Of a stretch of DNA of 44,158 nucleotides, positions 28,846-44,158 are shown piece after piece. How positions within the stretch are numbered: the first letter of the stretch is position 1; every line of letters starts with the position of its first letter. The translations under genes were made by a program, and so were the position numbers. Origin of the DNA: Promethearchaeota archaeon (lineage in GTDB: Archaea; Asgardarchaeota; Hermodarchaeia; Hermodarchaeales; Hermodarchaeaceae). The stretch spans positions 57,084-101,241 of the forward strand of contig JBHLMG010000004.1 of the NCBI GenBank assembly GCA_048938385.1, written 5' to 3'. The notes beneath the pieces are model-generated. The model made no database searches and was not told the origin of the DNA. It saw only the letters and a program-made list of their open reading frames with translations.

Positions 28846-31800
28846 ATGCGACTAAAGCATTTTATTCTTGGATTATTCCTGATATTTTTCCTACTCGAAT
28901 TTACAGTTCCCACTATTACTCTTCCCGAATATCTCCCAACTCCCAATGAGTCAATCTCTACAGCATCCATTTTTACTTCAACTCAAACTAATCCCTCCCC
29001 TGGTCTTATTGTTCGACCCTCAGAAGATGCCATTCCACCTCTTCCCGATAACCCCCTTGGAACAGGGAGGGAAACCCTGGTCGAATGGTGGGATACCAAT
29101 TACGATTATCGACGCAAAATCACCATAGTTGAACCCAACATCGCATCCCGATCCATGGAACCGGTCCACATCTACATGACCTTCACCGGTGATGTTGCTA
29201 AAGAAGGAATCATCGCTGTCGCCTATTGGGATCTTGCAACTTGGCATGAAGTTCCATCACAAGTCTGGAACGCGACGACCCACACTACAGGACCTACGAC
29301 CTACTATGATTCTTGCACGGTTTGTATTCTCGTCAATATCACAAAAAATTACCAAGAAGTCTTCTACATCTACTACGATGACTCCTATACAACAGCTCCA
29401 AGCTATACTGACTACATCACGGCCATAGCTGATAATGGCCCAATCACCGATGATACGACAATGCCATGGGTTTACTCCGAAGTCACCTCTACAAATTACA
29501 CAAATGTAGACACCATCTTCATTCGGTCCTCAGCATCACAAAATGAATCCGCAGCCATTCTCCTCACCGATATGCTTCGCGGCGGCTCCGATTGGGGCGG
29601 ACCCTGCTGCGGCCTCATAGCCGCCCGTTACGGCGATGTAGACGCCTTAGACACTAACAACGGCACAGGAACAGGTACCAACCGGCAATACATGCTTCTC
29701 GGTGAATTCGCCCTCGACCCGCTTGGTCAAGACACCAGTATGGACTCTGACATAAACACTCGCGCTAATGTCGCACCCGACAACCCTGCAGAAGCCTGGG
29801 TCGCGGGTGCAGGTGTTTGGATCCTGGATGATGGTCCACTATTTACACGAATTAAAATCGTCACTAGCGATGGCGGTTATAGTAACATCAATTCGCCCTG
29901 GAGTAACCAGACCACGGATACAGTAAACCGGGGAAACAATGGCGCCACTGGATTTCTCAACTACACCATAACCTATACTTTCTACTGGCATGGCAACACT
30001 CTCCTTGTCAATGTGATGCTAGATATCACAGCAAACCCCCAATGGCAGGACGCCCAATGCCATGTCAAAAACTACGGTGATTGGCCCCACATCATGACTT
30101 TTACATGTGGCTCCGGAACACCAGGTACTGTTGACGCAGTACAAAACCGAAAAGCCTGGAACGGCTCAAAATATGGGCTCTACAACGAATCCGTTGATGG
30201 CCGGCGCCGAGACTTTCCAATTGAACCATGGTTCGCTTGGTATGACGATGCCAGTGAACCCGGTTACGATGGAACACAACATCCAACATTGGGCCTTATT
30301 GCAAAGGTCAACCCGGTCGGCTGGGAAGTCCTTTCTCTCGCTGTAACCGGCATGGGCGATAACACGATGCTTCAACAAATCCTCCGTGAAGGACACCAAG
30401 GTGACTTCTTCATCATGCCAACTGGTGAGACCTTCAGTTATGATTACACCGTGTATACAAGCGCCTATGGCACAGATTATGGTGAAGTTCGTTCACAAAC
30501 CTCGCAAGTGAATAATCCTGTGAGCTTGAGCCTTGGCGAACAAGAACTATATCGGCATAACATCCTCACCTGCAAAACCCGAGATGTAGAAGACACAGCA
30601 ATTTCTAATATCTCCCTCTATATCTTCAACAGCACCCTAGATTTAGTACGAACAGGAACTACTGTTTCTGCGACCGCCCTCTTTGAGAAACTCGAAGACG
30701 ATACATATACCATCATTTCAAATTACTCCCTGCTCTCAACCTATGGAGGGCTTGTAACCTTCCGCGTCAACACAACCCAAATCACTCTAGACCATACAAT
30801 TGACCGCAACTGGACTCAACCAATAACCTGCCAATTGAGCAAAACCACAGTGCATGTCGTCGATTGGTATACCAACAACAACCTCGCCACATTCGCTGAA
30901 GTCTTCTTAGACAATGCCTCGGACAGCATGCCAATTTTCGCATTGAACGCAACCATCCCTGGAGGACTAGCTTCAACTTATCTCCTTCCAGGACAGTACG
31001 ATGTTAACATTCGATACATCAACCGCTTCCGCGTTCACAATCAAACTACTCCCTTCCAAGTGAGCAGCACTACTAGTACGCAAATTCCCATCGGCGTCGT
31101 AGCTACCGAACACGCCACCGAATTGAGCCTTGTCCGACCGAGTACCATTCCCTACATCGAAGTCGGATTCAACACCACAACTCGGTTCGTCGTCCTTTAT
31201 CGAGATCTTATCACGGGGCAACCAATCGATGGATTGGCTACACCAATTCCCTATGTGGCGAATTGGACCTTATCCAACTCAACCCACAACAACATTGACT
31301 CTGGACTCCTTACTCCAGTGGTTGGTGAGCCTGGTAACTATTCTGTGCTCTTCGATGCCACTGGGTACCTTGTTAACGAAACTTACCAACTTCGGATACT
31401 TCTCGATGTGAACGCCCCGGTCGATTATTGGCAAGCCTATATCGCCATCGGTATCCTCATTCGTGGTCGAGAAGTCCAAATAATCCCCGAGTCCACCTCA
31501 TACAGTGTCTTTTGGAACGATACGGTGAATCTAGCAGTCTATCTCAACGACACAGCCACAAACCAACCTATCCTTGGCGCTCTGCCCACCTACTTCGGTG
31601 TTGGTTTTTCAGGCTCACTCCTGCCCAACGGTACAGATGGATGGTACACAGCCGCTCTTAAAGTTGAGAACATCAATCAAGGGACTTATACCATCACCGT
31701 TCGGGCACAAATTGCAGCTTACGAAGATGCCACGACACAAATCCTACTCTATGTCGCTCCCCAACCCACCGATGCAACACTCATTGATGGATACACCAGC

Positions 31801-33090
31801 ACTCAAGATGGTCTTACGAATCGAACACTTACACGCGGGGATTGGTGGGCTCCAGCAGGTGACTTGCTCGTTTTTACTTTTAACTACACGGGTATGTACG
31901 ATCAACTCATTCTCGATGCCATTGGGCAAATTAGCTACCAAGTTGGTTTTCAGAGCCTCGAGTACCTCGGAAATGGCCTTTATCGCGTCGTCATTAACAC
32001 AACGACTATTCCTATTGGATCCTACTCGGCAGCAGTAGGCTTTTCGAAGCAGAACTTCGAAGTAGCCATCCTCAGCTTTACGATCGAAGTACGCCTCATT
32101 CCCACAGAGATTCAGCTCATCCACCCATCTCTCAATGCCAGCTACTTCGAAGGCTATGTGACCGATCTCTTACGCGTGCGCGTCAGGGTTACCGATACCT
32201 GGCACAACCTTCCCGTAACCAATGCTACCTTAGTTGTTTACCTCTCCGAATTAGGCTATCCACCCATGCTCATGTACAGCGTACCAGGACTCCCCGGAGT
32301 GTACGAACTGGGCGGAATCAACCTACTCAGAGAAGGAATCTTTGACCTCACCATCACCGCCACCGCAGACAACCACGAGCCTGTAGAATTCATCTTCCAA
32401 CTACGCATCGAAACCCACCCAGTCACACGGAACCTCATCACCTTCGGTCTCATTGCCGCCATCATCGGCATCATCATGCTGCTTGCCTGGGTTGCCTATA
32501 CACGGGTCTTCGCCATCCCCTGGCTCGTCCGCAAGATGCGAAAAATGTCCACCACCATCGGTAAAGGCAAAACACCTAAACTCTCAGGACGCGACCAAAA
32601 CCGCATCGCCACCCGACCCGACCAAATGACTGATTTTATGCAAGACGCCTATAACAACGCACGCATTTCCTTCGTAGCGTCTGCTATACCAACCATCATT
32701 GCCCTCGACGAGCGGGAAGCCGAAGAGATCGACATCTGGCGAGAACTCGATAATCTCGAAGGCCTCGGGCGCGACCAAAAACTTGAACTCTTCGAAGAAA
32801 TGAAACGCATTCCCCCCAAAGATCGCATCTGGTTCCTTGAAGACCTCAAACGCCAACTCGCAGACGGCACACGCTTCAGTCGGATCGCACTCGAGGGGAC
32901 CCCTGAAGGACTTCTCGACGAGGAAGCTGAAGCACGCGTCATTCAAGCCCGGCTTGATGCCCTTCCCGCCCTCAGCGAGCAAGAGAAGAAAGCCCTCTTC
33001 AAACAAATCAGCAGCCTCCCCCCTGAAGAACGCGAAGAAGTCTTCGAAACCCTTAAAGAACAATACGAAACCAGCGACGAAGAAGAATAA
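28846..33090 (+). CDS. Giant type-I membrane protein A (signal peptide, DUF2341-like head, Ig-like repeats, TM helix, conserved cytoplasmic helical-repeat domain)
   Basis: Hydrophobic N-terminus; WWDTNYDYRRKITI; many N-x-S/T sequons; about 95-aa beta-rich repeats; TM near 32434-32499; tail PWLVRKMR...QKLELFEEMKRIP...WFLEDLK...ADGTRF. Confidence 0.9.
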   Translation: MRLKHFILGLFLIFFLLEFTVPTITLPEYLPTPNESISTASIFTSTQTNPSPGLIVRPSEDAIPPLPDNPLGTGRETLVEWWDTNYDYRRKITIVEPNIASRSMEPVHIYMTFTGDVAKEGIIAVAYWDLATWHEVPSQVWNATTHTTGPTTYYDSCTVCILVNITKNYQEVFYIYYDDSYTTAPSYTDYITAIADNGPITDDTTMPWVYSEVTSTNYTNVDTIFIRSSASQNESAAILLTDMLRGGSDWGGPCCGLIAARYGDVDALDTNNGTGTGTNRQYMLLGEFALDPLGQDTSMDSDINTRANVAPDNPAEAWVAGAGVWILDDGPLFTRIKIVTSDGGYSNINSPWSNQTTDTVNRGNNGATGFLNYTITYTFYWHGNTLLVNVMLDITANPQWQDAQCHVKNYGDWPHIMTFTCGSGTPGTVDAVQNRKAWNGSKYGLYNESVDGRRRDFPIEPWFAWYDDASEPGYDGTQHPTLGLIAKVNPVGWEVLSLAVTGMGDNTMLQQILREGHQGDFFIMPTGETFSYDYTVYTSAYGTDYGEVRSQTSQVNNPVSLSLGEQELYRHNILTCKTRDVEDTAISNISLYIFNSTLDLVRTGTTVSATALFEKLEDDTYTIISNYSLLSTYGGLVTFRVNTTQITLDHTIDRNWTQPITCQLSKTTVHVVDWYTNNNLATFAEVFLDNASDSMPIFALNATIPGGLASTYLLPGQYDVNIRYINRFRVHNQTTPFQVSSTTSTQIPIGVVATEHATELSLVRPSTIPYIEVGFNTTTRFVVLYRDLITGQPIDGLATPIPYVANWTLSNSTHNNIDSGLLTPVVGEPGNYSVLFDATGYLVNETYQLRILLDVNAPVDYWQAYIAIGILIRGREVQIIPESTSYSVFWNDTVNLAVYLNDTATNQPILGALPTYFGVGFSGSLLPNGTDGWYTAALKVENINQGTYTITVRAQIAAYEDATTQILLYVAPQPTDATLIDGYTSTQDGLTNRTLTRGDWWAPAGDLLVFTFNYTGMYDQLILDAIGQISYQVGFQSLEYLGNGLYRVVINTTTIPIGSYSAAVGFSKQNFEVAILSFTIEVRLIPTEIQLIHPSLNASYFEGYVTDLLRVRVRVTDTWHNLPVTNATLVVYLSELGYPPMLMYSVPGLPGVYELGGINLLREGIFDLTITATADNHEPVEFIFQLRIETHPVTRNLITFGLIAAIIGIIMLLAWVAYTRVFAIPWLVRKMRKMSTTIGKGKTPKLSGRDQNRIATRPDQMTDFMQDAYNNARISFVASAIPTIIALDEREAEEIDIWRELDNLEGLGRDQKLELFEEMKRIPPKDRIWFLEDLKRQLADGTRFSRIALEGTPEGLLDEEAEARVIQARLDALPALSEQEKKALFKQISSLPPEEREEVFETLKEQYETSDEEE

Positions 33091-33181
33091 CACCGACTCT
33101 AAAGCCCCGATCCTGAGTTACCGTTTCACAACACTAGATCATTCAATACAAACTTAAAGTCTGGATTTTCCTCAAGCGTAA

Positions 33182-33203
33182 ATCTCAGGAAAGCTATTTA
33201 AAT
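33182..33203 (+). promoter_or_regulatory. Putative BRE/TATA promoter of protein B with shared ATCTCAGGAAA element
   Basis: ATCTCAGGAAAGCTATTTAAAT; the same 11-mer occurs at 37900-37910. Confidence 0.45.
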
Positions 33204-33284
33204 TCTTGAAGGTTGTTTAGCTTAGCGGCTACATCAGCCAATACCGCTCTACTCCATACTGTCAATGATGGGTGAGAACCTAGA

Positions 33285-36200
33285 ATGAAAATTCGTCCTA
33301 TAATTCTCCTTTTACTCTGTTGTATGATGTTACCTTTCCTATCACAGCCTGCCATCCCGACGGCGATTGATGCTGTGAACGCTCCAACGAGTTATACCCC
33401 AACATTCTCGAGTTCTCCCCCTTTACCCGAAAGTTCACCACTTCCCCCAAGTCCTGATTATTCAGGGTTAGGGACTGCACGCTCCGTTCATGAAGTGGCT
33501 AATCGGACTGATGCAAATCAAGCTATCCTTCTCTTCTATGATAGTGGAACTCAAACAGCAGGAACCGACTCAGCGAATGTGGTACTTCCTCCTGGCTGGA
33601 CCGGTTATCAGCTAGATTTTTGGGTCGACGACTTGTATGAAAACCGAACTTGGGCCTTAAACCCGAGCTTCAACGGTGGAACCACATATTGGACTAGTGG
33701 ATACGATGACCTCGGAGGGACCAACACCTTCGCACAGACATGGCAAAGCGGAGGGCCTGATGGCAATGGTTATGTTCGGGTCCAAGAGGATGGGCGTTGG
33801 GATGGCTCTTATTATCGTTATGATAATAATGATCGAACTTGGTGGACTCAAACCTATACAGTCCCCCGAAGTGATATTGAGTGGGTAGGAATCAAGCTCG
33901 ATTATCGAGTTGATAGTGCTTGGGGGAGTAACGCTCTTTTCAATGTCTATATCCGTATTAACGGCACCCAAGTTTGGGCAAAAGGCTTTCAATCTGTCGG
34001 AGACACTAACTGGCATAATAGTGACTTCCTGGAACTTGATTCTGGGCTCTTTGATATTCCGAACAGCGCCATTGAACTCGAAATTGGCATGTTCTCCACC
34101 ATGAGTGTGGGTTACAGCTCAAACAATTGGATGCGTGTAGAATTTGACAATGTTTGGCTTTATATGAAGACAAAAGTTTATCCCACGGAAATTAACCTCC
34201 AAATGAATGGGTTAGCAGTTGAAAATCAGGTCAGTCGGGGTTCGGGCTTTGTCCGCCAGATTCCTACCAGTGTTTGGACGACCTCACCTGTAGTTTCCAA
34301 CCTGGTTTGGGCACCTACCACCAATCCGCCTGATCCCGATCTTGATATCGCAGTGACAGGTGTCTGTGACCTCAACCTCTTTGCCAACAAAACAGCATCT
34401 ACTCTCTACGCGCAGAGCCCAAGTGCCATTGGCGTTGGATTCATGGCAAGCAATGGGCAAAACACAACTTGGACCTTCTTTTATCAATTAGCTCTCCCAT
34501 CCCAATATTGGAACGATGTCTTTAACTTCACCATTCCAAGCGACTGGAATATTACCTTCGTATCGGAACCCCAGTTGCCTACAATCAATAAGGTTGGTCT
34601 GTGTTTCGGAGGAAATCTTGGTGATGGTTATATCAGCATTCCGGCAACCGACATCACAGTAAGCCCTGATGGCTACTGGATGATTCAGGCAGAATCCCAT
34701 AACTATGTTGATGCCGCAGAATTACAAATCTTCGATGGTGGGTGGACTCCCACATCATCAATCCGAGCTGGAAACACCACTCGAGTTGCAGCACGCATCT
34801 TAGATGGAACAGATACGCCACCTGTCGGAATAACCGGGACAGAAGCAAATGTCTCTATTTTTGAACCAGGTGGGGGGTTGTGGTACAGTGAGCTTGTTAC
34901 CCCAAACGCTCAAGGTTGGGTCTATACCTCCAGTTTCTACCATGATGGCTGGAATACAACCGGTGGAACCTACAACATATTTGTCAACTGGGATAACGCA
35001 ACGGAAGCAGGTGAGTTCTGGCTCTCTTATACCATGGAACATTCTACATCCCTTACCCCGCGCGAACCCTTAATTGAAGCGTTCTTAGAAAATCAACCGC
35101 TTTACCCGAAGGTTCGTTATGAGGATTCTGATAGCCATTCCTGGTTAGAGCCTCCCGCCACGGTTGTGGGTAACTGGACAACGGGTACGATCACTTTTCA
35201 CTATGTATCCGGAACAGGATACTATGAAGCCGAAATCAATGCCCAAGATCCTGGAACGGTTGGACAATTTTGGATCCGTGTGAACGCGAGTAAAAATCAC
35301 TATGACGACGCTTCTTGCTTTATTTTAATTGATATCGTCTCAGAAACAGATGTTGAATCGCCTCAAGTGGGCGGTGTTGAAGTTCCTTGGCGAGGCAATA
35401 CTACCGTCGCAGTGCATTATACGCAAAAAATTGGGGGCGGGGTTCTGGGTGCAACCATCGCTTGCAACTGGACGAGTGGATTTTATACAATTACTGAGGG
35501 AACGGATGGCTGGTATTACATCGAACTCAACAGTAGCGGACCCGGTGCGATCGGCACATACATGATGAATGTTACCCTCTACAAAGAACGCTACCAACGC
35601 CAACAAATTCGAATCCCGGTCTTCGTGACCCCCATGACCCTCATCATCACCACGACTGTTGGTGAACCTGTCAATGTGACCTACGGCGAACAATTCTGGG
35701 TCGAAGTCTATGTAGAGAACTTTCTTGGCGAACCTTTCGATGAAGCTAATGTCTCATTCTCCTGGACCGGTGGCACTCTCTATAATAACACCGGGGTGAA
35801 CGCCTACTTTGGGGTCTGGCTAAATTCCTCTAAAGGAAGCATCGGCATCCACTATCTCACCGTCTATGTGACCGGACCTAATGTGATACCTAGCGTCAAA
35901 GCCATCCTCATACATGTAAAACAGATAGGCAGCATCCTTGACACAGTTCCCACCGGCGAGTATAGCCTTACCTTCATCCAAGGGGAAACTTTCAGAATCT
36001 CTGTCAATTATTCCACTATCTATGGTGATCCCGTTGAACTCGCCACGGTCACCTACTTGGTGGGCACCCTTAGCGGCTCCTTCATTGAGATTGGCAACGG
36101 TATCTACAATGTCACTATTGATACCACAACCTTAGTGGCTGGATCCTATACGATTTATGTCACCGCTTCATCACCGAATGTCGACTCCCAATCACGCGCC

Positions 36201-37823
36201 ATCAGCTTGATACTGACATTGATTCCTGCAGAAATCGTCCCTGAAACAGCAATTTACAACATTTACTGGGGTGACGCTTTCACTATTACCGTTTTCTTCA
36301 GAAACCTCTCTAACGATAGTGCTATTCTCGGGGCTAGTATCGAATATAGTTGGGGTCCTTTCTCTGGAACCCTCGTCGCGAACGGTACTCCTGGTTGGTA
36401 CACCTCGACCCTTCCGAGCACCGGATTCGCGGCGGGCTCAGTGTATGTTGCTACCTTGACTGCTAACGAACCGCACTTCCAGTTCGTAGTTACTACAGTA
36501 ACCGTATTCATCAATCCTCGACCAACGGACTTAGATCTCGTCGCCGCCAACATGTACTTCCCTGACACGGACGCGGTAACGCTCCTTAATATTTCAGAAC
36601 CCTGGACTGTCCCACGCAGCGACATCCTTTATCTCTACTTCAACTTCACCGACTATGAAAACGCTATCATCACCGATGGCACCGGTGTTTACAACTGGTT
36701 ATACGGCAGTGGTGTGCTCACCTACAATAATGGTTTGTACTATGCTGCCATCGACATGACTCAAATCACACCCGGTTCATACTTCCTAGATGTGACCTTC
36801 ACCCGCCAAAACTACGAAATTGCCCAGGTTACCCAACTTCCCTTAACCATCACATTAGTTCGAACAGAAATCCGTCTTGAAATCGAAGGAGGAACCTATT
36901 ACGGTTTTACCGGAGATCCTTTGGTCTTCGGCCTCATTCTCTGGGATTTAGATCACAACATCTCCATTGATTTCGCTAATATCAGCGTGTTCATCCAAGG
37001 GTTTACCCCCGATGAGGGTATTCGCTTGACCAATCACCACAATGGATTATACACCTTTGACGGCTTCATCAGCTTCCCCTTTGAGGCCACCTACATTATC
37101 GAAATCACAGCCGAAAGCGGTTTGGTCTATCAGATTACCTCACTTAATATGCCGGCTGTCATCACCTTACACCCCATCGTCCAACAAGGTCTTCGATACG
37201 GGCTCATCGCCGCAATTCTCGGCATCCTCCTCCTCGGTGCATGGGTGGCGTATTCCCGGGTCTTTTCCATCCCCTGGCTTGTCCGCAAAATGCGGGGAAT
37301 GTCGAAAACGATTGGTCAAGGAAAAACACCGCACCTTTCGAACCGTGATGTCAATCGGATCTCTACACGCCCTGAATCTATGGAAACCATCGCTGATTCC
37401 GCCTACCGCTCGATTGGCGTTACCGTTGCTGCAACCATGGTGCCTGCAGCCGTCACCATAGAAGAACGCCAAGCCGAAGACGAACTCATCTGGCGAGAAC
37501 TAGAAAAACTCGAAGGCCTGGGCCACGACCAAAAACTCGAACTCTTCGAAGAAATGAAACGCATCCCCGCCAAGGACCGCGTCTGGTTCCTCGAAGACCT
37601 GAAAGAACAAATGGCTGATGGCACCCGCTTTGGTCGCCTCCGCGCTGAACCTACACCGGTTCCCGAAGGCGTCGATCCCAGTGTCCACGCCCGACTCCAA
37701 TCCCTCGACGCCCTTGGACCAGCTGAAAAACAAGCCGTCGTGGAACAGCTCCGCGGGCTCTCTAAAGAAGAACAAGAAGAGGTTATCAAAGCCCTCGAAG
37801 ACACCGAACGCCAAGCCGGTTAA
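33285..37823 (+). CDS. Giant type-I membrane protein B (signal peptide, CBM/jelly-roll-like head, Ig-like repeats, TM helix, same cytoplasmic domain)
   Basis: 1512 aa; NPSFNGG...FDNVWL head; repeats V.WG..h.h.V.Y......I.GA.V...W....G.G.Y; GGGTGAG SD; conserved tail. Confidence 0.9.
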   Translation: MKIRPIILLLLCCMMLPFLSQPAIPTAIDAVNAPTSYTPTFSSSPPLPESSPLPPSPDYSGLGTARSVHEVANRTDANQAILLFYDSGTQTAGTDSANVVLPPGWTGYQLDFWVDDLYENRTWALNPSFNGGTTYWTSGYDDLGGTNTFAQTWQSGGPDGNGYVRVQEDGRWDGSYYRYDNNDRTWWTQTYTVPRSDIEWVGIKLDYRVDSAWGSNALFNVYIRINGTQVWAKGFQSVGDTNWHNSDFLELDSGLFDIPNSAIELEIGMFSTMSVGYSSNNWMRVEFDNVWLYMKTKVYPTEINLQMNGLAVENQVSRGSGFVRQIPTSVWTTSPVVSNLVWAPTTNPPDPDLDIAVTGVCDLNLFANKTASTLYAQSPSAIGVGFMASNGQNTTWTFFYQLALPSQYWNDVFNFTIPSDWNITFVSEPQLPTINKVGLCFGGNLGDGYISIPATDITVSPDGYWMIQAESHNYVDAAELQIFDGGWTPTSSIRAGNTTRVAARILDGTDTPPVGITGTEANVSIFEPGGGLWYSELVTPNAQGWVYTSSFYHDGWNTTGGTYNIFVNWDNATEAGEFWLSYTMEHSTSLTPREPLIEAFLENQPLYPKVRYEDSDSHSWLEPPATVVGNWTTGTITFHYVSGTGYYEAEINAQDPGTVGQFWIRVNASKNHYDDASCFILIDIVSETDVESPQVGGVEVPWRGNTTVAVHYTQKIGGGVLGATIACNWTSGFYTITEGTDGWYYIELNSSGPGAIGTYMMNVTLYKERYQRQQIRIPVFVTPMTLIITTTVGEPVNVTYGEQFWVEVYVENFLGEPFDEANVSFSWTGGTLYNNTGVNAYFGVWLNSSKGSIGIHYLTVYVTGPNVIPSVKAILIHVKQIGSILDTVPTGEYSLTFIQGETFRISVNYSTIYGDPVELATVTYLVGTLSGSFIEIGNGIYNVTIDTTTLVAGSYTIYVTASSPNVDSQSRAISLILTLIPAEIVPETAIYNIYWGDAFTITVFFRNLSNDSAILGASIEYSWGPFSGTLVANGTPGWYTSTLPSTGFAAGSVYVATLTANEPHFQFVVTTVTVFINPRPTDLDLVAANMYFPDTDAVTLLNISEPWTVPRSDILYLYFNFTDYENAIITDGTGVYNWLYGSGVLTYNNGLYYAAIDMTQITPGSYFLDVTFTRQNYEIAQVTQLPLTITLVRTEIRLEIEGGTYYGFTGDPLVFGLILWDLDHNISIDFANISVFIQGFTPDEGIRLTNHHNGLYTFDGFISFPFEATYIIEITAESGLVYQITSLNMPAVITLHPIVQQGLRYGLIAAILGILLLGAWVAYSRVFSIPWLVRKMRGMSKTIGQGKTPHLSNRDVNRISTRPESMETIADSAYRSIGVTVAATMVPAAVTIEERQAEDELIWRELEKLEGLGHDQKLELFEEMKRIPAKDRVWFLEDLKEQMADGTRFGRLRAEPTPVPEGVDPSVHARLQSLDALGPAEKQAVVEQLRGLSKEEQEEVIKALEDTERQAG

Positions 37824-37835
37824 CGCTAGCACTTA

Positions 37836-37867
37836 GGGGCACAGCCTGTGCCCCCTATGCCCTTTTT
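37836..37867 (+). terminator. Hairpin plus T-tract terminator after protein B
   Basis: GGGGCACA-GCC-TGTGCCCC 8-bp stem followed by GCCCTTTTT. Confidence 0.55.
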
Positions 37868-37899
37868 GGCATTTCTTAATGTTTTTTCATTAAATAAAC

Positions 37900-37923
37900 A
37901 TCTCAGGAAAAACTGATAAATAC
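37900..37923 (+). promoter_or_regulatory. Putative BRE/TATA promoter of protein C with shared ATCTCAGGAAA element
   Basis: ATCTCAGGAAAAACTGATAAATA. Confidence 0.4.
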
Positions 37924-37998
37924 TCATCTGGGAGCTAGAAGTACTGCGGGGATACTAATCGTAGATGGTATACCAGCTTGAGAAAGTGGTGTGTTACT

Positions 37999-40900
37999 AT
38001 GAGTAAAAAATCCAGCCTGCTCACATTATTCGTGCTCCTAGCTGTCGTTATGGTGTTCTCTCCTACCAGCATATTCCTTGAGAGCGCTGTGCGGGCGGCT
38101 CCTCCCAATTCTCCCTATGAGGGAGTAGGTGCAAATATTGATGTCGTTGAATTTGCACGAAATGACAGCACCCTCTTCTCAAACGGCGTAAACGGCACCG
38201 CCTTTTCGTATCTTGAAGGGTGGTATCCTTCAGGCCATCGCGGTTATCATTTGCTCACTTCGGTTTCAAACCTTCGCCGCACCGAAGACCCGGTCCCTAA
38301 CGGTGATTTTGACCAATACGACGAGCCTAATAATAACTGGACCATGACCGCATCTACTGGTGGACTAGTAAAATCCATAGATAATGTCACAGGTGGTAAC
38401 CCTGGATATTGTCTTGACGCCGAACTCAAATATGGAAATGTCCCCAACACCGCCTATGCCTGGATTGATAACGACTTTACTTATACCTCTTCTATCACAC
38501 CAGATAGCTTAAGATTATTTTTTGATATACGATTCTCTGAAGACATCTCCAAAGCAGGTTGGTTGAGCGTCAAAGTTGCAGTTCGCTATCAAGCCGCAGA
38601 AGTCGGAAGTTGGACAAACACAACAGATCTTTTTAGTCCAACTACATGGCAATCTATAGATTTTTGGACAGCTGCCGTTAACGGAACGGTTACCATTCGC
38701 ATCATAATTGCAAAACAGGGTGGAGGAGGTGCTAACACAAAGGGGCATATCTACTTCGATAATTTTCGGTATGTCATCGGTACAGACAGCAAACCCAGTG
38801 AAGTCGGGTTGACTCTCAATGGAGCTTCAATCTCCGATACTACGGGAAGCGCTGGAGAAGTCAATATTTACGCGGATCCGGTTACGAAGGAAGAGGCTCC
38901 GTTAGCCAATTGCTGGAATACAACCGAAGCATTTCAATTCATTTCTGTATCTCACGCTGATATCAGCTTTGATTATGAGTATTCAATGTACATAAAAAGT
39001 GAAAATCCTGCTGCTGCATCAACCGATTTCTCTGCTGCTGCAGATGCAGCCCCTACTTGGAATGTAAACTACACAATTCCCAGTGATCCGCCCCGTCCTC
39101 CAAGCGGATGTGTGGGATATAGTTATGGCTTGTATCTGCGTTCAACATGGAATCTAGTTGAAGTTCGAGATACAGATGATGATCTCGTTCCGACAACCCA
39201 GTATGATTATAACACAACCAGTCAGTTCTTCAAACTGAAAGAAGGCGTTGCTTCTACCGGTGAAAAATTCCGCGTCGTTGCCTCAAGCCTAAACTACATT
39301 CTAGAGGTTTATCCTCAAAAAAGTAGCACCGGATCAGGTCCCTGGACCAATCTTTCCGCAAGCAATTATTATGTAAAGGACGACTGGTTGCGGGTCCTTG
39401 CTACACTACGACCAATTAGTCCATCGGCTAATACTGCTGAAGTGACAATTTTCCGTCCGGATGGTTCAATTTGGCAAAATGATCCGTCACCCACTATCCA
39501 TTCCAGTAACAACACAATCATCAGTTCAGCGTGGCAAGTCGATCAGATTGATGCAGATAATGCAGGAAGCCAATGGCAAGTTACCGTATCCTTCGATAAT
39601 ACGACACAATGCGGTATGCGTGCAAAATCGTTTTCGATCGTCATCGAAACTACCGCTACGAAATGGACCCCAAGTGATGGCGCTACAGTAACCTGGGGAC
39701 AAAGTGTTTTTGTAAATGTAACTTGGACGGATGATTTGGGTACTTCTATTCCCGACGCCTTTGCCCGAATTCGTTACATCGATCGTAATCTTCAAACCCG
39801 ATATGCGAATATGACGGCAAACGGCCTAGGTGCATATGAATTAGCTTTTAGCACGAATTTAATGAGCCCTGATCGCGCTGCAGAATTCTATGTTGAACTA
39901 TTTCGCTATGGGTATGTAAATGTCACAGGGACACAACTACGCTATACAATCAACCTAGTCAATGATCTGAGTTACACCATGCTAAGACCCACCCAACAAA
40001 CAGGGCCCAATGAATATACCGGCGAAACCACCAGCGAGGCTGGTTATATTAGTCAAGTCAGATTCTACGATCTTTACGAACAAGCGTATGTTCGAAACGA
40101 TACCGGCGTGTGGAACGAAAATGTCCGAGTCAACTTCACCCGCTATCATTATACGACATCCTGGGAGTTCTATTCAGAAGGCAGCTTCATACCCAATGCT
40201 TCGAACCCCACGATATTCGAAAAAGTCGATTCTCAGTATTCGGGTACTTCTCAAGTGAAGTATGAAGTGACATTGCGTATTGTCGGAGCGGCGTGGGATT
40301 TTGAGCAACAAAACTTCACAATTATTATCAAAGTAGTTAGCATCGCGACAGACTTGGACGCAGTGCGAACCACCATTATGTATCCGCCCTCAGGCGATGG
40401 ATGGACTCAATACAACAACAACACTGACAGCTACGAGGTCCGCATCTATTGGAATGAAGTATTCAACATCACTGTGTTTTACCACTTCGCTGAAAACGAC
40501 ACAGGGATTAGTGGAGCAAGTGCCACTCTCCTTTATGAGGCTAGCAAGAAGACCATGAGTGCAGTGCCAATCGGCTATTTCACCTACTCCTTAAATACGA
40601 ATGATGTTGGTCTTGGCACAACGGACTTGTTTGTTAATGCTAGTCGAGTAAGTTACGCTTCTCAGACAATTCAAATTCGATTAATCGTTGAAGCGCGAAA
40701 AACTGAACTGACAAAAGACTATCTAGGATCCATAGTTGATCTACCTTATGATGATGATTTCACGGTCATTTTCACCTTCAACGATATCGTTTCAGGAGCT
40801 CCTGTTGCAATAACAGATGCCCTAGGTACCATTGTTGGTTATCCCGGAGGGAAATCTTCAGTAGTTAACAATGGTGATGGAACATACACTGCGACATTCT

Positions 40901-43900
40901 TGGGGGATGTTGTTGAAACCACATATTATGTTACCGTTGGGTTCAGCCGTACTAATTATACGAGTCAATCCAAGTACTTTGAAATCACGGTTCGTCCGAT
41001 GCATACCACGGCTTTTGGTCTGGTAGAATCCGTCTCGGTTCCGTGGGGGCAAAATGTAACCATCAACATCTCCTACAACGATACCGATCACGGCGGTATT
41101 GCCATTTCTGGTGCCACCCTTTCCTTTGTTTCGACAAATGGCTTCTTCAACTCTTCCAGCGATATTCTGGGTGTCGATTACTGGCTGGTTTACAACCCAG
41201 ACGGATCTTACACGCTGATTCTTAACACAACACGAGTGGGAACCGGAATGCAACCCTTCACGCTAATTATCACGCTTAGTAAGATTCATTACGATAACTA
41301 CGAAGTATATACATCCTTCCAAGTACGAGATAACCTCACCGTCCTTCAACGGGTATCACTCGACCCAGGAACGACCGTATCCTGGGGCGACAACCTCACT
41401 ATCGTCTTCACCTATACCAACTTAGATGATGGTGGTTCTGCAATTCCATTCGCAATAATTAGCTGTGATTGGGATGCGTTCTATTGGAGTTGCGACTATA
41501 ATACCACTTTACAGGTCTATATTCTCGTCATACGGACAGAAAGTCGTCTCGAAGGCAGCTATACGGTCACGATAAGTGCCAAGAAAAACCACTATCAACA
41601 ATTCTCAATCATCGAAAACTTCGTGGTCCGACAAATCCAAACAACGCTTGATGTTGATCCGGATTACATACCAAATTGGCCCTTGGGCTTCAATCTCACT
41701 CTCCGCATTGATTACTATGATGCTGATCACGGAGGACAAGTACCCTTCGCTGAAGTGGTTACCGATTGGAATGCAGGCTATTACACGATTATTTACTATG
41801 GAAATGGAACTTATGATTTAATCCTTAATACAACCTGCCGAGGGGTAGGAACACATCCAATTAATGTGACCATCTGGCGCGAGCATTACGCTCAACGAAC
41901 GGTGATAGTGTCCTTAACGCTAGTTCCGATTCCTCTATTCGTAGAAGTTCTTTCGGACTCGCCAGTGACTACTGAATATAATTCAACCGATTTGGTCGTA
42001 GTAACGGTGCGCGTAACCGACCTTTATGGGCGACTGATTAACAACTCTATCACAACCTACCATTGGCTTGGGGGAAGTGGAACCCTCTCGTTTGTCGGAG
42101 CAGGTGTTTACAATGGTTCCTTCTCCGCGGCTGCTGATACTGGCGCTTATGTGGTAACTATCCAGGCTAACAATACAGGTTATCAAATTGGCGTGAGCTT
42201 CGTCATGCTTAATATTCTCCCCACGGATACAATCCTAAGTCCAATAACCTCTAGTGTTCAAGCCGTGGTGGGTCAAACTTTTGACATTTCCATTCTGTTC
42301 ACAACTATTTACGGCACTGGAATTGCTGATGCTACGGTAACCTATCTTTGGGCAACTAATAGGACCGGGACCTTAACCTTTGTTGGTGGCAATGTCTATA
42401 ATGCTACTCTCGATAGTTCCGGATTATCTGCGGGACAATACATCGTCTATGTGACCGCTGGAGGTCAGAATGTCATTGAACGACGAACGACCATCAGTGT
42501 GATATTAGTCTTAATTCCAACGGACCTCCAAGCCTTTCCGGCTATCCAAGAAGTCTACTACGGATTGGATTTCACACTCCTCGTCTTTTTCAATGACACC
42601 ATCAACGATGTAGGTATAGATGGGGCGAATGTCACCTACATTTGGGGACCTCTGACAGGATCGTTGCAACCAACAGGAACGGCTGGATGGTATAATGTTT
42701 CATTACCAACCACAGTTTTCCCCATTGGAACCTACTCAATTACGCTTGCTGCTGATTTCGAAGGGTATCAATATGCCTTAGACTCCGTATCGGTAATCAT
42801 TCGCCCTCAACCAACCACCTTGGACCTCGTCCTAATTCAAACCTATTTCGCACCACAAGATATCGTTACGAACCTTACAGGAATTACCTGGGTTGTTCCA
42901 CGTGGTGAAATTCTTCTGCTATACTTCAACTTCACGGACGCAGCGAACAGTACTATAAGTGGGGCTTTAGGTACCTATACCTGGACTTATGGCACTGGAA
43001 TTCTCTCCTTTGAAAACGGCTTATACATCGCCACATTAAATCTGTCACAAACCCAGCCAGGAACATATTCTCTTCAAATTACCTTGACCTTCCAAAACTA
43101 CGAGGTAGGGCAAAGCCCCTCCTATGATTTGATCGTAATTCGAGTTCCCAGTGCCGTTCAAGTCATAACAGACACAGAAAACATACTTACAGGAACAGTA
43201 TGGAACCTCGTCGTTTTCTACAATGATACATACCACAATTTACCAATTGTTGGCGGCAACCTTACAGTTACCATTCCAGAACTTGGAATCGAAAATGCGT
43301 ATATGCTTGACATTGGAAATGGATTTTATTCATTCCCCGTACCAGCGCTTATCGTTCAAACCACTCTCCATATAGAAATTCGCGCACTAGGTGGGTTACA
43401 ATACAGTTCGGCCATCGAAGACATCGTGGTCGTAGTAACGCTTCATGCCATGGTTTTTGGTGTGCTTCAGATAGGCCTTGGTGCTGCGGTAATTGGTATT
43501 ATCGTGATTGTGATGTGGCTAGCATACACACGGGTTCTAGCGATTCCTTGGCTGGTCCGTAAAATGCGACGCATGAGTCGGACTATCGATAAAGGTAGAA
43601 CTCCTAGTCTTTCAAAAAGGGATTTTGAACGAATTGGCTCTCGACCAGATCTAATTGCCCATCTTGCAGAACCAGCTTATATGACCATCAACATCCCAAT
43701 TTCTGCCGCAAGTCTGCCTGCAGCTTTAGACTACGAAGAGCGGTATGCAGAGGATGAAGCCATTTGGGAAGACTTGAAGCAACTGCCTCGACTCGAATAC
43801 CACCAAAAACTCGAACTCTTCCAGGAGATGAAACGGATTCCCGCAACCGAACGGGTGTGGTTCCTTGAAGACTTGAAGCAACAAATGGCCGATGGAACCC

Positions 43901-44158
43901 GATTTGCCCGAAAGGTCAAAGAACCCGCCCTCGAACCAGAGCTAGAAAAAGAACTACAAGAACGGTTGAAACAATTTCCACAATTGAGCGATGTTGAAAA
44001 AGAACGGATCACCGGACAACTTCGTCATCTTCCCAAGGAAGAATGGGATGAAGTGTTCACTACACTCGCCGTTTCTACAAAACCAGAAGTTGTCAAAGCC
44101 GTTAAAGCTGAGGTAGCTGAGGTAGCTGAGGTAGCTGAGGTAGCTGAGGTAGCTGAGG
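37999..44158 (+). CDS. Giant type-I membrane protein C (>2053 aa, 3'-truncated; absent from the ORF track)
   Basis: ATG at 37999 gives MSKKSSLLTLFVLLAVVMVFSP.... The frame was open at every line I spot-translated and the track lists no ORF in it. TM VFGVLQIGLGAAVIGIIVIVMWLAY. Tail PWLVRKMR...QKLELFQEMKRIP...WFLEDLKQQMADGTRF. Confidence 0.88.
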   Translation, partial: MSKKSSLLTLFVLLAVVMVFSPTSIFLESAVRAAPPNSPYEGVGANIDVVEFARNDSTLFSNGVNGTAFSYLEGWYPSGHRGYHLLTSVSNLRRTEDPVPNGDFDQYDEPNNNWTMTASTGGLVKSIDNVTGGNPGYCLDAELKYGNVPNTAYAWIDNDFTYTSSITPDSLRLFFDIRFSEDISKAGWLSVKVAVRYQAAEVGSWTNTTDLFSPTTWQSIDFWTAAVNGTVTIRIIIAKQGGGGANTKGHIYFDNFRYVIGTDSKPSEVGLTLNGASISDTTGSAGEVNIYADPVTKEEAPLANCWNTTEAFQFISVSHADISFDYEYSMYIKSENPAAASTDFSAAADAAPTWNVNYTIPSDPPRPPSGCVGYSYGLYLRSTWNLVEVRDTDDDLVPTTQYDYNTTSQFFKLKEGVASTGEKFRVVASSLNYILEVYPQKSSTGSGPWTNLSASNYYVKDDWLRVLATLRPISPSANTAEVTIFRPDGSIWQNDPSPTIHSSNNTIISSAWQVDQIDADNAGSQWQVTVSFDNTTQCGMRAKSFSIVIETTATKWTPSDGATVTWGQSVFVNVTWTDDLGTSIPDAFARIRYIDRNLQTRYANMTANGLGAYELAFSTNLMSPDRAAEFYVELFRYGYVNVTGTQLRYTINLVNDLSYTMLRPTQQTGPNEYTGETTSEAGYISQVRFYDLYEQAYVRNDTGVWNENVRVNFTRYHYTTSWEFYSEGSFIPNASNPTIFEKVDSQYSGTSQVKYEVTLRIVGAAWDFEQQNFTIIIKVVSIATDLDAVRTTIMYPPSGDGWTQYNNNTDSYEVRIYWNEVFNITVFYHFAENDTGISGASATLLYEASKKTMSAVPIGYFTYSLNTNDVGLGTTDLFVNASRVSYASQTIQIRLIVEARKTELTKDYLGSIVDLPYDDDFTVIFTFNDIVSGAPVAITDALGTIVGYPGGKSSVVNNGDGTYTATFLGDVVETTYYVTVGFSRTNYTSQSKYFEITVRPMHTTAFGLVESVSVPWGQNVTINISYNDTDHGGIAISGATLSFVSTNGFFNSSSDILGVDYWLVYNPDGSYTLILNTTRVGTGMQPFTLIITLSKIHYDNYEVYTSFQVRDNLTVLQRVSLDPGTTVSWGDNLTIVFTYTNLDDGGSAIPFAIISCDWDAFYWSCDYNTTLQVYILVIRTESRLEGSYTVTISAKKNHYQQFSIIENFVVRQIQTTLDVDPDYIPNWPLGFNLTLRIDYYDADHGGQVPFAEVVTDWNAGYYTIIYYGNGTYDLILNTTCRGVGTHPINVTIWREHYAQRTVIVSLTLVPIPLFVEVLSDSPVTTEYNSTDLVVVTVRVTDLYGRLINNSITTYHWLGGSGTLSFVGAGVYNGSFSAAADTGAYVVTIQANNTGYQIGVSFVMLNILPTDTILSPITSSVQAVVGQTFDISILFTTIYGTGIADATVTYLWATNRTGTLTFVGGNVYNATLDSSGLSAGQYIVYVTAGGQNVIERRTTISVILVLIPTDLQAFPAIQEVYYGLDFTLLVFFNDTINDVGIDGANVTYIWGPLTGSLQPTGTAGWYNVSLPTTVFPIGTYSITLAADFEGYQYALDSVSVIIRPQPTTLDLVLIQTYFAPQDIVTNLTGITWVVPRGEILLLYFNFTDAANSTISGALGTYTWTYGTGILSFENGLYIATLNLSQTQPGTYSLQITLTFQNYEVGQSPSYDLIVIRVPSAVQVITDTENILTGTVWNLVVFYNDTYHNLPIVGGNLTVTIPELGIENAYMLDIGNGFYSFPVPALIVQTTLHIEIRALGGLQYSSAIEDIVVVVTLHAMVFGVLQIGLGAAVIGIIVIVMWLAYTRVLAIPWLVRKMRRMSRTIDKGRTPSLSKRDFERIGSRPDLIAHLAEPAYMTINIPISAASLPAALDYEERYAEDEAIWEDLKQLPRLEYHQKLELFQEMKRIPATERVWFLEDLKQQMADGTRFARKVKEPALEPELEKELQERLKQFPQLSDVEKERITGQLRHLPKEEWDEVFTTLAVSTKPEVVKAVKAEVAEVAEVAEVAEVAE
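44107..44158 (+). repeat. Perfect 9-bp tandem repeat (GCTGAGGTA) x5 plus partial unit, encoding (AEV)n
   Basis: Directly visible, in frame with protein C, and running to the window end. Confidence 0.95.

Follow-up and report, generated by a model that had tools for sequence, protein, structure and literature searches.

The 44,158-nucleotide stretch of Asgard archaeal DNA analyzed here (the window; positions 57084-101241 of contig C24, from an assembly with 51 contigs, 2.48 Mb in total, and 90% completeness) carries a tandem array of three co-oriented open reading frames (ORFs), A, B, and C, which encode giant surface-type proteins of 1414, 1512, and 2169 amino acids (aa). We found that all three proteins end in a conserved, predicted cytoplasmic tail of 188-318 aa, in which a basic juxtamembrane motif, RVxxIPWxVRKMR...KGKTP, is followed by two or three acidic three-helix bundles of ~55 aa. 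To judge from sequence, this tail marks an unnamed, Asgard-specific family that is recognized by a C-terminal transmembrane (TM) segment, an xRVxxIPxxVR basic motif, and at least one acidic module, all of which A, B, and C possess. The explanation that we favor, with a probability of about 0.55, is that the modules tie differently headed surface proteins to one common cytoplasmic partner.

The family touches the question of which proteins cover the surface of Asgard archaea and how these are linked to the eukaryote-like cytoskeleton and trafficking machinery inside. Cultured Asgard archaea, Lokiarchaeum ossiferum among them, do without an ordered S-layer; their single membrane bears many protruding, complex proteins that have yet to be identified (PMC9834061). 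Full-text literature searches found no published description of the tail. To the initial annotation of this DNA, which had drawn attention to the three genes, the present analysis adds a census of tail classes in one genome, the sharing of heads between tail classes, a fused architecture in Loki-type genomes, a minimal form in Odin-like genomes, and an analysis of selection among orthologues and paralogues.

Structure and conservation of the tail

An alignment of 26 diverse tails served to model gene A residues 1200-1414 with AlphaFold2, and the model reached a mean predicted local distance difference test score (pLDDT) of 84. The model runs from the TM helix through a basic-motif helix, two short helices, and bundle 1 to a disordered linker and bundle 2. 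In gene A (coordinates are window positions, and all features of the array lie on the + strand), the TM helix (aa 1201-1222; 32446..32511) was located by hydropathy and corresponds to the AlphaFold2 helix at model residues 2-23, with pLDDT 96-97. Next comes the basic juxtamembrane segment (aa 1223-1286; 32512..32703), which contains RVFAIPWLVRKMRKMS..KGKTPKLS and has a net charge of +8 over its first 45 residues. The consensus of the helix directly after the membrane is RVxSIPWxVRKMRKM, then KGKTPxLS, and all 26 aligned tails keep both the P and the first R of IPWxVR. Module 1 (aa 1287-1344; 32704..32877) is modeled as helices at residues 88-103, 110-122, and 125-141 with pLDDT ~90, and it matches a hidden Markov model (HMM) of the module with a domain E-value of 1e-19. 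Module 2 (aa 1359-1413; 32920..33084; helices 160-172, 179-190, and 194-214) aligns with module 1.

The same layout is found in the other two genes. Gene B has its TM segment at 37188-37256 (hydropathy), the juxtamembrane segment at 37257-37457, and modules 1 and 2 at 37458-37631 and 37662-37814, respectively; the TM segment of gene C lies at 43462-43530 (hydropathy) and its first two modules at 43732-43905 and 43936-44088. In total, the module HMM detected two copies in A, two in B, and three in C, with per-domain E-values of 1e-9 to 1e-20, and the modules are mutually alignable. The charge of the tails is sharply divided, with +6 to +8 over the first 45 residues and -12 to -25 over the remainder (isoelectric point 4.9-5.3; no Cys).

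Module 1 is the best-conserved part of the tail, with 58-75% identity among the three paralogues, and many of its charged and aromatic residues do not vary among paralogues or genera. The corresponding identities are 51-53% for the juxtamembrane segment, 44-61% for the TM segment, 32-36% for module 2 plus the C-terminus, and 30-42% for the membrane-proximal stalk. The 48-aa cores that the initial annotation had singled out (32734-32877, 37488-37631, and 43762-43905) were recovered exactly on recount, and that of gene A falls inside module 1. Identities, all in frame, are 41/48 between A and B, 35/48 between B and C, and 32/48 between A and C; the A and B core DNA differs at 23/144 nucleotides, with 13 synonymous and seven non-synonymous codon differences.

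We compared the proteins and the tail with known families and folds. Searches of the three full-length proteins against Pfam (E up to 1) and NCBIfam gave nothing above noise and, as had been claimed from the translations, no enzymatic domain. NCBIfam holds sorting-signal models, and no PGF-CTERM match was obtained for A, B, or C. A tail profile retrieved nothing from the PDB sequences (best E >= 0.075), so that the tail corresponds to no characterized sorting or anchoring domain in Pfam, NCBIfam, or the PDB, and a feature search in the ESM Atlas gave no usable match. At the level of structure, Foldseek of the tail model against the PDB and a fold search of the Atlas returned generic helical matches only (Foldseek E >= 0.6), and VIA-align matched the module to three-helix bundles with Z 5-6.7 and a root-mean-square deviation of 2.3-2.8 Å over 54-60 residues. 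The tail is not likely to bind DNA, because it is acidic and matches no DNA-binding profile.

Membrane topology

The initial annotation had described three co-oriented giant genes, each with a signal peptide, a sequon-rich ectodomain, one TM helix, and a long tail, and this description is borne out by the ORFs, hydropathy, and shuffling. By hydropathy, each protein has an N-terminal signal-like hydrophobic segment and one strongly hydrophobic segment near the C-terminus. N-X-S/T sequons number 31 in A, 30 in B, and 51 in C; all of them are in the ectodomains and none is in the tails. These counts are more than 2-fold above those expected from composition (shuffle means of 13, 14, and 21, with 0/1000 shuffles matching the observed count). 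The 20 residues following the TM segment contain five to six K/R, versus zero to two in the 15 residues preceding it. Furthermore, the ectodomains consist of 18-20% T+S and 6.3% N, and the tails lack Cys and are rich in K/R and D/E. The placement of the sequons, the charge flanking the membrane segment, and the composition together support a type-I, single-pass topology for A, B, and C, in which the tail would lie inside the cell rather than outside it. The ectodomains are probably glycosylated and exposed at the cell surface.

Stalks and heads of the ectodomains

The common part of the three proteins is larger than the tail. BLASTP places the homology of A, B, and C in their last 520-860 residues (stalk plus tail; ~38% identity) and leaves the heads unmatched; within the ectodomains, the homologous region covers the membrane-proximal 300-850 aa. 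Thus, the shared chassis consists of the stalk, the TM helix, and the tail. The earlier view that the ectodomains are very divergent therefore holds for the heads, whereas the stalks are homologous at the 30-42% identity given above.

An AlphaFold2 model of the gene A ectodomain showed the stalk (the last ~440 residues) as all-beta with pLDDT 80-90, and Foldseek matched it to strings of immunoglobulin (Ig)/fibronectin type III (FnIII)/macroglobulin (MG) beta-sandwich domains. The head (the first ~730 residues) was modeled with pLDDT <40 and gave no interpretable fold. Profiles of the three heads retrieved no match from the PDB sequences. The named Atlas clusters closest to the opening domain of the gene C head (scores of 0.79-0.88) consist of carbohydrate-binding or glycoside-hydrolase accessory domains, which we take only as a lead toward a carbohydrate-binding identity.

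Tail classes and shared heads in one genome

Searching the genome with the tail profile yielded five carriers: A, B, and C, with E-values of 1e-117 to 1e-123, and two further paralogues, D and E. Paralogue D is a 3299-aa protein on contig C37. Paralogue E is split between C16:3-4274(-) and C32:24200-30724(-), and the ends of the two contigs overlap by ~60 near-identical residues. D and E represent a second tail subtype, with IPWEVRRMR in the basic motif and a Pro-rich linker with PPPP between the two modules, which is absent from A, B, and C. The PPPP linker of the D and E tails (L027:2564-12463(+) and L028:7198-13725(-)) may, purely as speculation, be a profilin or SH3-type site. An NfeD gene adjoins paralogue E, in this genome only. 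A strict regular expression for the juxtamembrane motif matched the five tail genes only, and the idea that the second long-tail family described below shares this motif was dropped.

In contrast to these five proteins, about a dozen other giant surface-type proteins of the genome have tails of only 1-15 aa after the TM segment, so that the long-tailed proteins form a distinct subclass. Another four to five type-I proteins (738-1374 aa) carry a different conserved cytoplasmic domain of ~245 aa, which is unrelated in sequence to the A/B/C tail and has no Pfam match (C9:1707-5828(-), C44:1322-5347(+), C16:36928-39735(-), C7:10441-13737(-), and C15:1679-2470(-)).

C16:36928-39735(-) encodes a 936-aa protein whose head shares 43% identity (E 1e-165) with that of gene C (aa 49-660) and which bears the second cytoplasmic domain, not the three-helix tail. 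The 936-aa gene is not an assembly chimera, since full-length copies are conserved in at least five further genomes of the genus, and head types recur on different tails, at full length, in at least six genomes of the genus. Head types are thus shared between tail classes. Within the three-helix class, the gene B head is distantly related to the heads of D and E (B versus D, 24% identity; E 1e-13 to 1e-23). The gene A head has an 83%-identical partial copy at a contig end (C49:3087-4964(+)), which may be an extra paralogue or a strain variant.

Distribution across Asgard archaea

Searching 201 sampled genomes of the phylum with a narrow profile showed how the tail is distributed. It is present in 18/18 genomes of the same family (Hermod-type), in 41/43 and 1/1 genomes of two families labelled Thorarchaeota (Thor-type), in 25/41 genomes of the family labelled Lokiarchaeia/Promethearchaeia (Loki-type), and in 4/4 members of a family whose genomes measure 1.3-1.4 Mb (labelled Odin-like from this size only), and there was no match in the 22 other families of the sample. 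The profile matches Hermod- and Thor-type genomes strongly and Loki-type and Odin-like genomes only remotely. Conservation of the tail therefore extends well beyond the genome in which it was noticed. Against 1.84 billion representative proteins from all life, the tail profile retrieved 44 clusters, 31 of them below 1e-30; all these matches are C-terminal in giant Asgard proteins, none of which is annotated.

The architecture around the tail varies with lineage. Thor-type carriers are ~2600 aa long, have the full tail, and are encoded in tandem arrays of two to four genes. Odin-like carriers are type-I proteins of only 570-870 aa and present a minimal form, in which the TM helix and a basic YPKIVRKIR..G.LPKP motif are joined through an acidic linker to one module (L064, L066, L067, and L069 in genomes G013, G035, and G001). 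Some Loki-type proteins have the TM helix and the basic motif only, with a short tail. In the 842-aa Loki-type protein P0103 (L084:52-2580(+), G134:C56), the second cytoplasmic domain, homologous to the tail of the C9 protein (E 2e-34), precedes a single three-helix module, and the protein closes with a long, helical, K/E-rich end. This combination is common in Lokiarchaeia, with more than 80 database relatives; it is also found at L083:2734-5850(-).

These observations bear on whether the tail is only an anchor or an aid to biogenesis, that is, a polybasic helix and acidic bundles that orient and retain giant proteins, and prevent their being pulled out or diffusing away in an envelope without an S-layer, with no specific partner involved. 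The TM-proximal basic motif is the most widely conserved element and, in some Loki-type proteins, is present by itself with a short tail, the charge split suits membrane association, and no partner gene is linked to the arrays, all of which agree with such a role. However, tails of 1-15 aa suffice for about a dozen surface proteins of equal size in the same genome, the invariant charged and aromatic residues of module 1 exceed the needs of a passive bulky plug, and in Lokiarchaeia the module has been transferred to a different cytoplasmic domain as well. We consider it rather unlikely that the tail serves as an anchor only.

Several tail paralogues coexist in every carrier genome, often in tandem arrays of two to four genes. 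This would be expected if tails bound one another, in like or unlike pairs, and thereby clustered the proteins or built a coat from inside the membrane; repeated small helical bundles are common self-association units. The bundles of this family, however, are strongly acidic, which disfavors like-with-like packing unless a basic counterpart is present, and we regard tail-tail binding as improbable. Structure prediction with two copies of the module region gave no supported complex, a result that weighs neither way.

Evolution and gene neighborhood

The array is syntenic at the genus level, in the order enoyl-CoA hydratase, A, B, C, at times a fourth gene of ~2120 aa, and nitroreductase. It comprises three to four genes in the genus, with an extra B-like or C-like copy, and the B-type gene ranges from 1512 to 2325 aa; varying arrays, always between the enoyl-CoA hydratase and the nitroreductase, are seen at loci L053-L062 in genomes G118, G043, G052, G106, and G060. 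Tails are 72-84% identical to their orthologues versus 50-57% to neighboring paralogues and group by orthologue, not by genome, which indicates that the duplications are older than the genus. There is no sign of concerted evolution among the tail sequences, and A, B, and C appear to be paralogues of long standing within a family of giant type-I proteins that is confined to Asgard archaea.

Between orthologues, synonymous divergence (dS) is saturated and the ratio of non-synonymous to synonymous divergence (dN/dS) is 0.05-0.15 in every part of the proteins. Together with the grouping by orthologue, this agrees with the earlier proposal of purifying selection rather than recent copying. Orthologue identities are 56-80% for heads, 72-82% for tails, and 58-73% for stalks. 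Since heads are about as conserved as tails between orthologues, they differ among paralogues and are not fast-evolving; the ectodomains are variable, as the initial annotation put it, in the former sense only.

Thor-type arrays (L093, L094, and L096 in G133, G169, and G027) lie beside the same block of about seven genes, which encode a class-I aminoacyl-tRNA synthetase, an LPG-synthase-like membrane protein, PHP, UbiA, DUF362, metallophosphoesterase, and SLOG proteins. The block was considered as a source of partners and set aside, because its position probably reflects plain synteny and not function.

The neighborhood also bears on the idea that the tail sequesters a regulator, as anti-sigma factors do, or is itself a signaling domain that is freed, in a Notch-like manner, by intramembrane cleavage after ligand binding. 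A sensor head, one TM segment, and a small helical domain resemble the bacterial single-pass anti-sigma factors, and the same head does occur with two different cytoplasmic outputs. Yet neither a regulator nor a protease gene is linked to the arrays, the tail is acidic and matches no DNA-binding family, and ectodomains of 1200-3000 aa that consist of repeated stalk units fit reach or adhesion better than ligand sensing. Such a signaling role seems very improbable to us.

A possible docking role of the tail

In the model that we prefer, in which the tails dock to a common partner, the proteins would be built in layers: an exchangeable head, an Ig-like beta-sandwich stalk, one TM helix, and the conserved cytoplasmic tail. 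The basic juxtamembrane segment would probably lie on the inner face of the membrane, and the two or three acidic bundles of ~55 residues, flexibly linked, would project into the cytoplasm. There the bundles, and above all the nearly invariant module 1, would act as protein-docking units, and docking to the candidate partner would serve anchoring, positioning, or the transfer of information across the membrane. Three observations support this proposal, all of them indirectly. First, the strongest conservation sits in a small, folded, non-enzymatic module. Second, the short-tailed giants of the same cell provide a contrast. Third, the module and the heads have been recombined, as expected of an output or docking module.

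Several findings weigh against a docking role. No linked partner gene was found at the Hermod- or Thor-type arrays, and the flanking enoyl-CoA hydratase (upstream) and nitroreductase (downstream), which were considered as partners, are unrelated metabolic genes. The module HMM found no soluble protein with the module in this genome. Z values up to 6.7 are in the noise range for helical models, so that the fold says nothing on function. Finally, in the only Asgard glycoproteome available, that of Prometheoarchaeum, predicted S-layer-type giants with PKD domains were undetected by proteomics, and N-glycosylation was found mainly on one solute-binding protein (PMC11284389); in view of these data, surface exposure and glycosylation of A, B, and C are best regarded as predictions.

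As for soluble carriers, 40 "shorter" database matches that had been taken as candidates were rejected, since they are fragments of the same tails. Tail-only gene calls of ~155 aa begin at a conserved internal Met. In the related genome G060, an assembly gap, seen as a run of N in the juxtamembrane region of gene A (C3, about 38640-38700), underlies one such spurious call, and three further ~155-aa database calls begin at the same internal Met.

A more far-reaching proposal is a combinatorial Asgard receptor system, in which the same head is wired to either the three-helix tail or the second domain, both domains are placed in series in Lokiarchaeia, and the module is the docking site for a eukaryote-like adaptor, such as the small-GTPase/longin or actin-regulating machinery. 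We regard this as doubtful at present. If it were true, the family would provide a physical link from outside to inside in those archaea that are most closely related to eukaryotes. Should no partner exist, the family would still be a new anchoring module of archaeal surface proteins and worth a domain entry. In either case it is a candidate for study as a large, lineage-wide group with a conserved, folded, and unannotated cytoplasmic module that has been recombined with different heads and with another cytoplasmic domain. At ~190 aa, the tail is small, and it is predicted to be soluble, which would make the docking idea directly testable.

Gene models and transcription signals of the array

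Gene A (28846..33090, 1414 aa) encodes a signal peptide (aa 1-27), a head up to ~aa 760, and a stalk (~aa 760-1195), followed by the TM helix and the tail. Gene B was called as an ORF at 33285..37823 (1512 aa). Gene C (37978..44158) is cut by the end of the window and, as read in the contig, continues for 329 nt beyond it; its complete length counted from a TTG is 2169 aa. The ATG at 37999 (~2162 aa), which opens the hydrophobic signal-like segment, is more likely than the TTG to be the start. Both an AEV repeat and the third module of gene C lie past the window end, and a run of N interrupts the AEV repeat (contig C24, about 101242-101400).

Reading the intergenic sequences, we noted the 11-mer ATCTCAGGAAA and then a TATA-like box upstream of gene B (33182..33205), and the same 11-mer with an A/T box upstream of gene C (37900-37925). 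The 11-mer has just these two copies in the window, a count that is not significant by shuffling. The A/T-rich boxes are promoter-like and may be the own promoters of genes B and C. Directly after the stop codon of gene B, a G+C-rich hairpin and a T-run (37836..37868), also read from the sequence, resemble a terminator, which suggests separate transcription units.

Comparison with known systems

The closest counterparts in archaea are S-layer glycoproteins, such as those of haloarchaea and the PGF-CTERM/archaeosortase substrates. They share with A, B, and C a Sec-type signal peptide, a sequon-rich and beta-rich ectodomain, and a single C-terminal TM segment, and probably also the position as the main exposed surface of a single-membrane cell. 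However, S-layer-type glycoproteins end a few basic residues past the anchor or are processed at PGF-CTERM, whereas A, B, and C continue for 188-318 conserved, folded residues, match no PGF-CTERM model, and coexist as several paralogues with different heads. The Asgard giants with the second cytoplasmic domain follow the same overall logic in the same organisms, and one of them shares the gene C head, but their cytoplasmic domain differs.

The tails of eukaryotic integrins and cadherins bind adaptors, and the initial annotation had likened A, B, and C to these receptors. The likeness holds for the layout: integrin beta and the classical cadherins likewise consist of a head, a beta-sandwich stalk, one TM segment, a basic juxtamembrane segment, and a conserved non-enzymatic tail. 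It does not extend to the components, since a Pfam search of A, B, and C (E up to 1) detected neither cadherin repeats nor integrin alpha/beta domains, NPxY is absent from all five tails, and the tails have no Pfam match and no catenin-type site. There is no relationship in sequence or fold, and the analogy is one of layout only.

With respect to the module itself, the B/Z domains of staphylococcal protein A, the GA/FIVAR modules, and the XD domain of the paramyxovirus phosphoprotein resemble the predicted module in size (~55 aa) and in the up-down-up arrangement of three helices, at Z 5-6.7, a level that unrelated helical models also reach. No sequence match to the protein A, GA, or FIVAR families was found with Pfam, and the Gram-positive examples are extracellular, whereas the A/B/C modules are predicted to be cytoplasmic. 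All of these small modules, protein A B/Z, GA/FIVAR, and XD, are protein-binding units.

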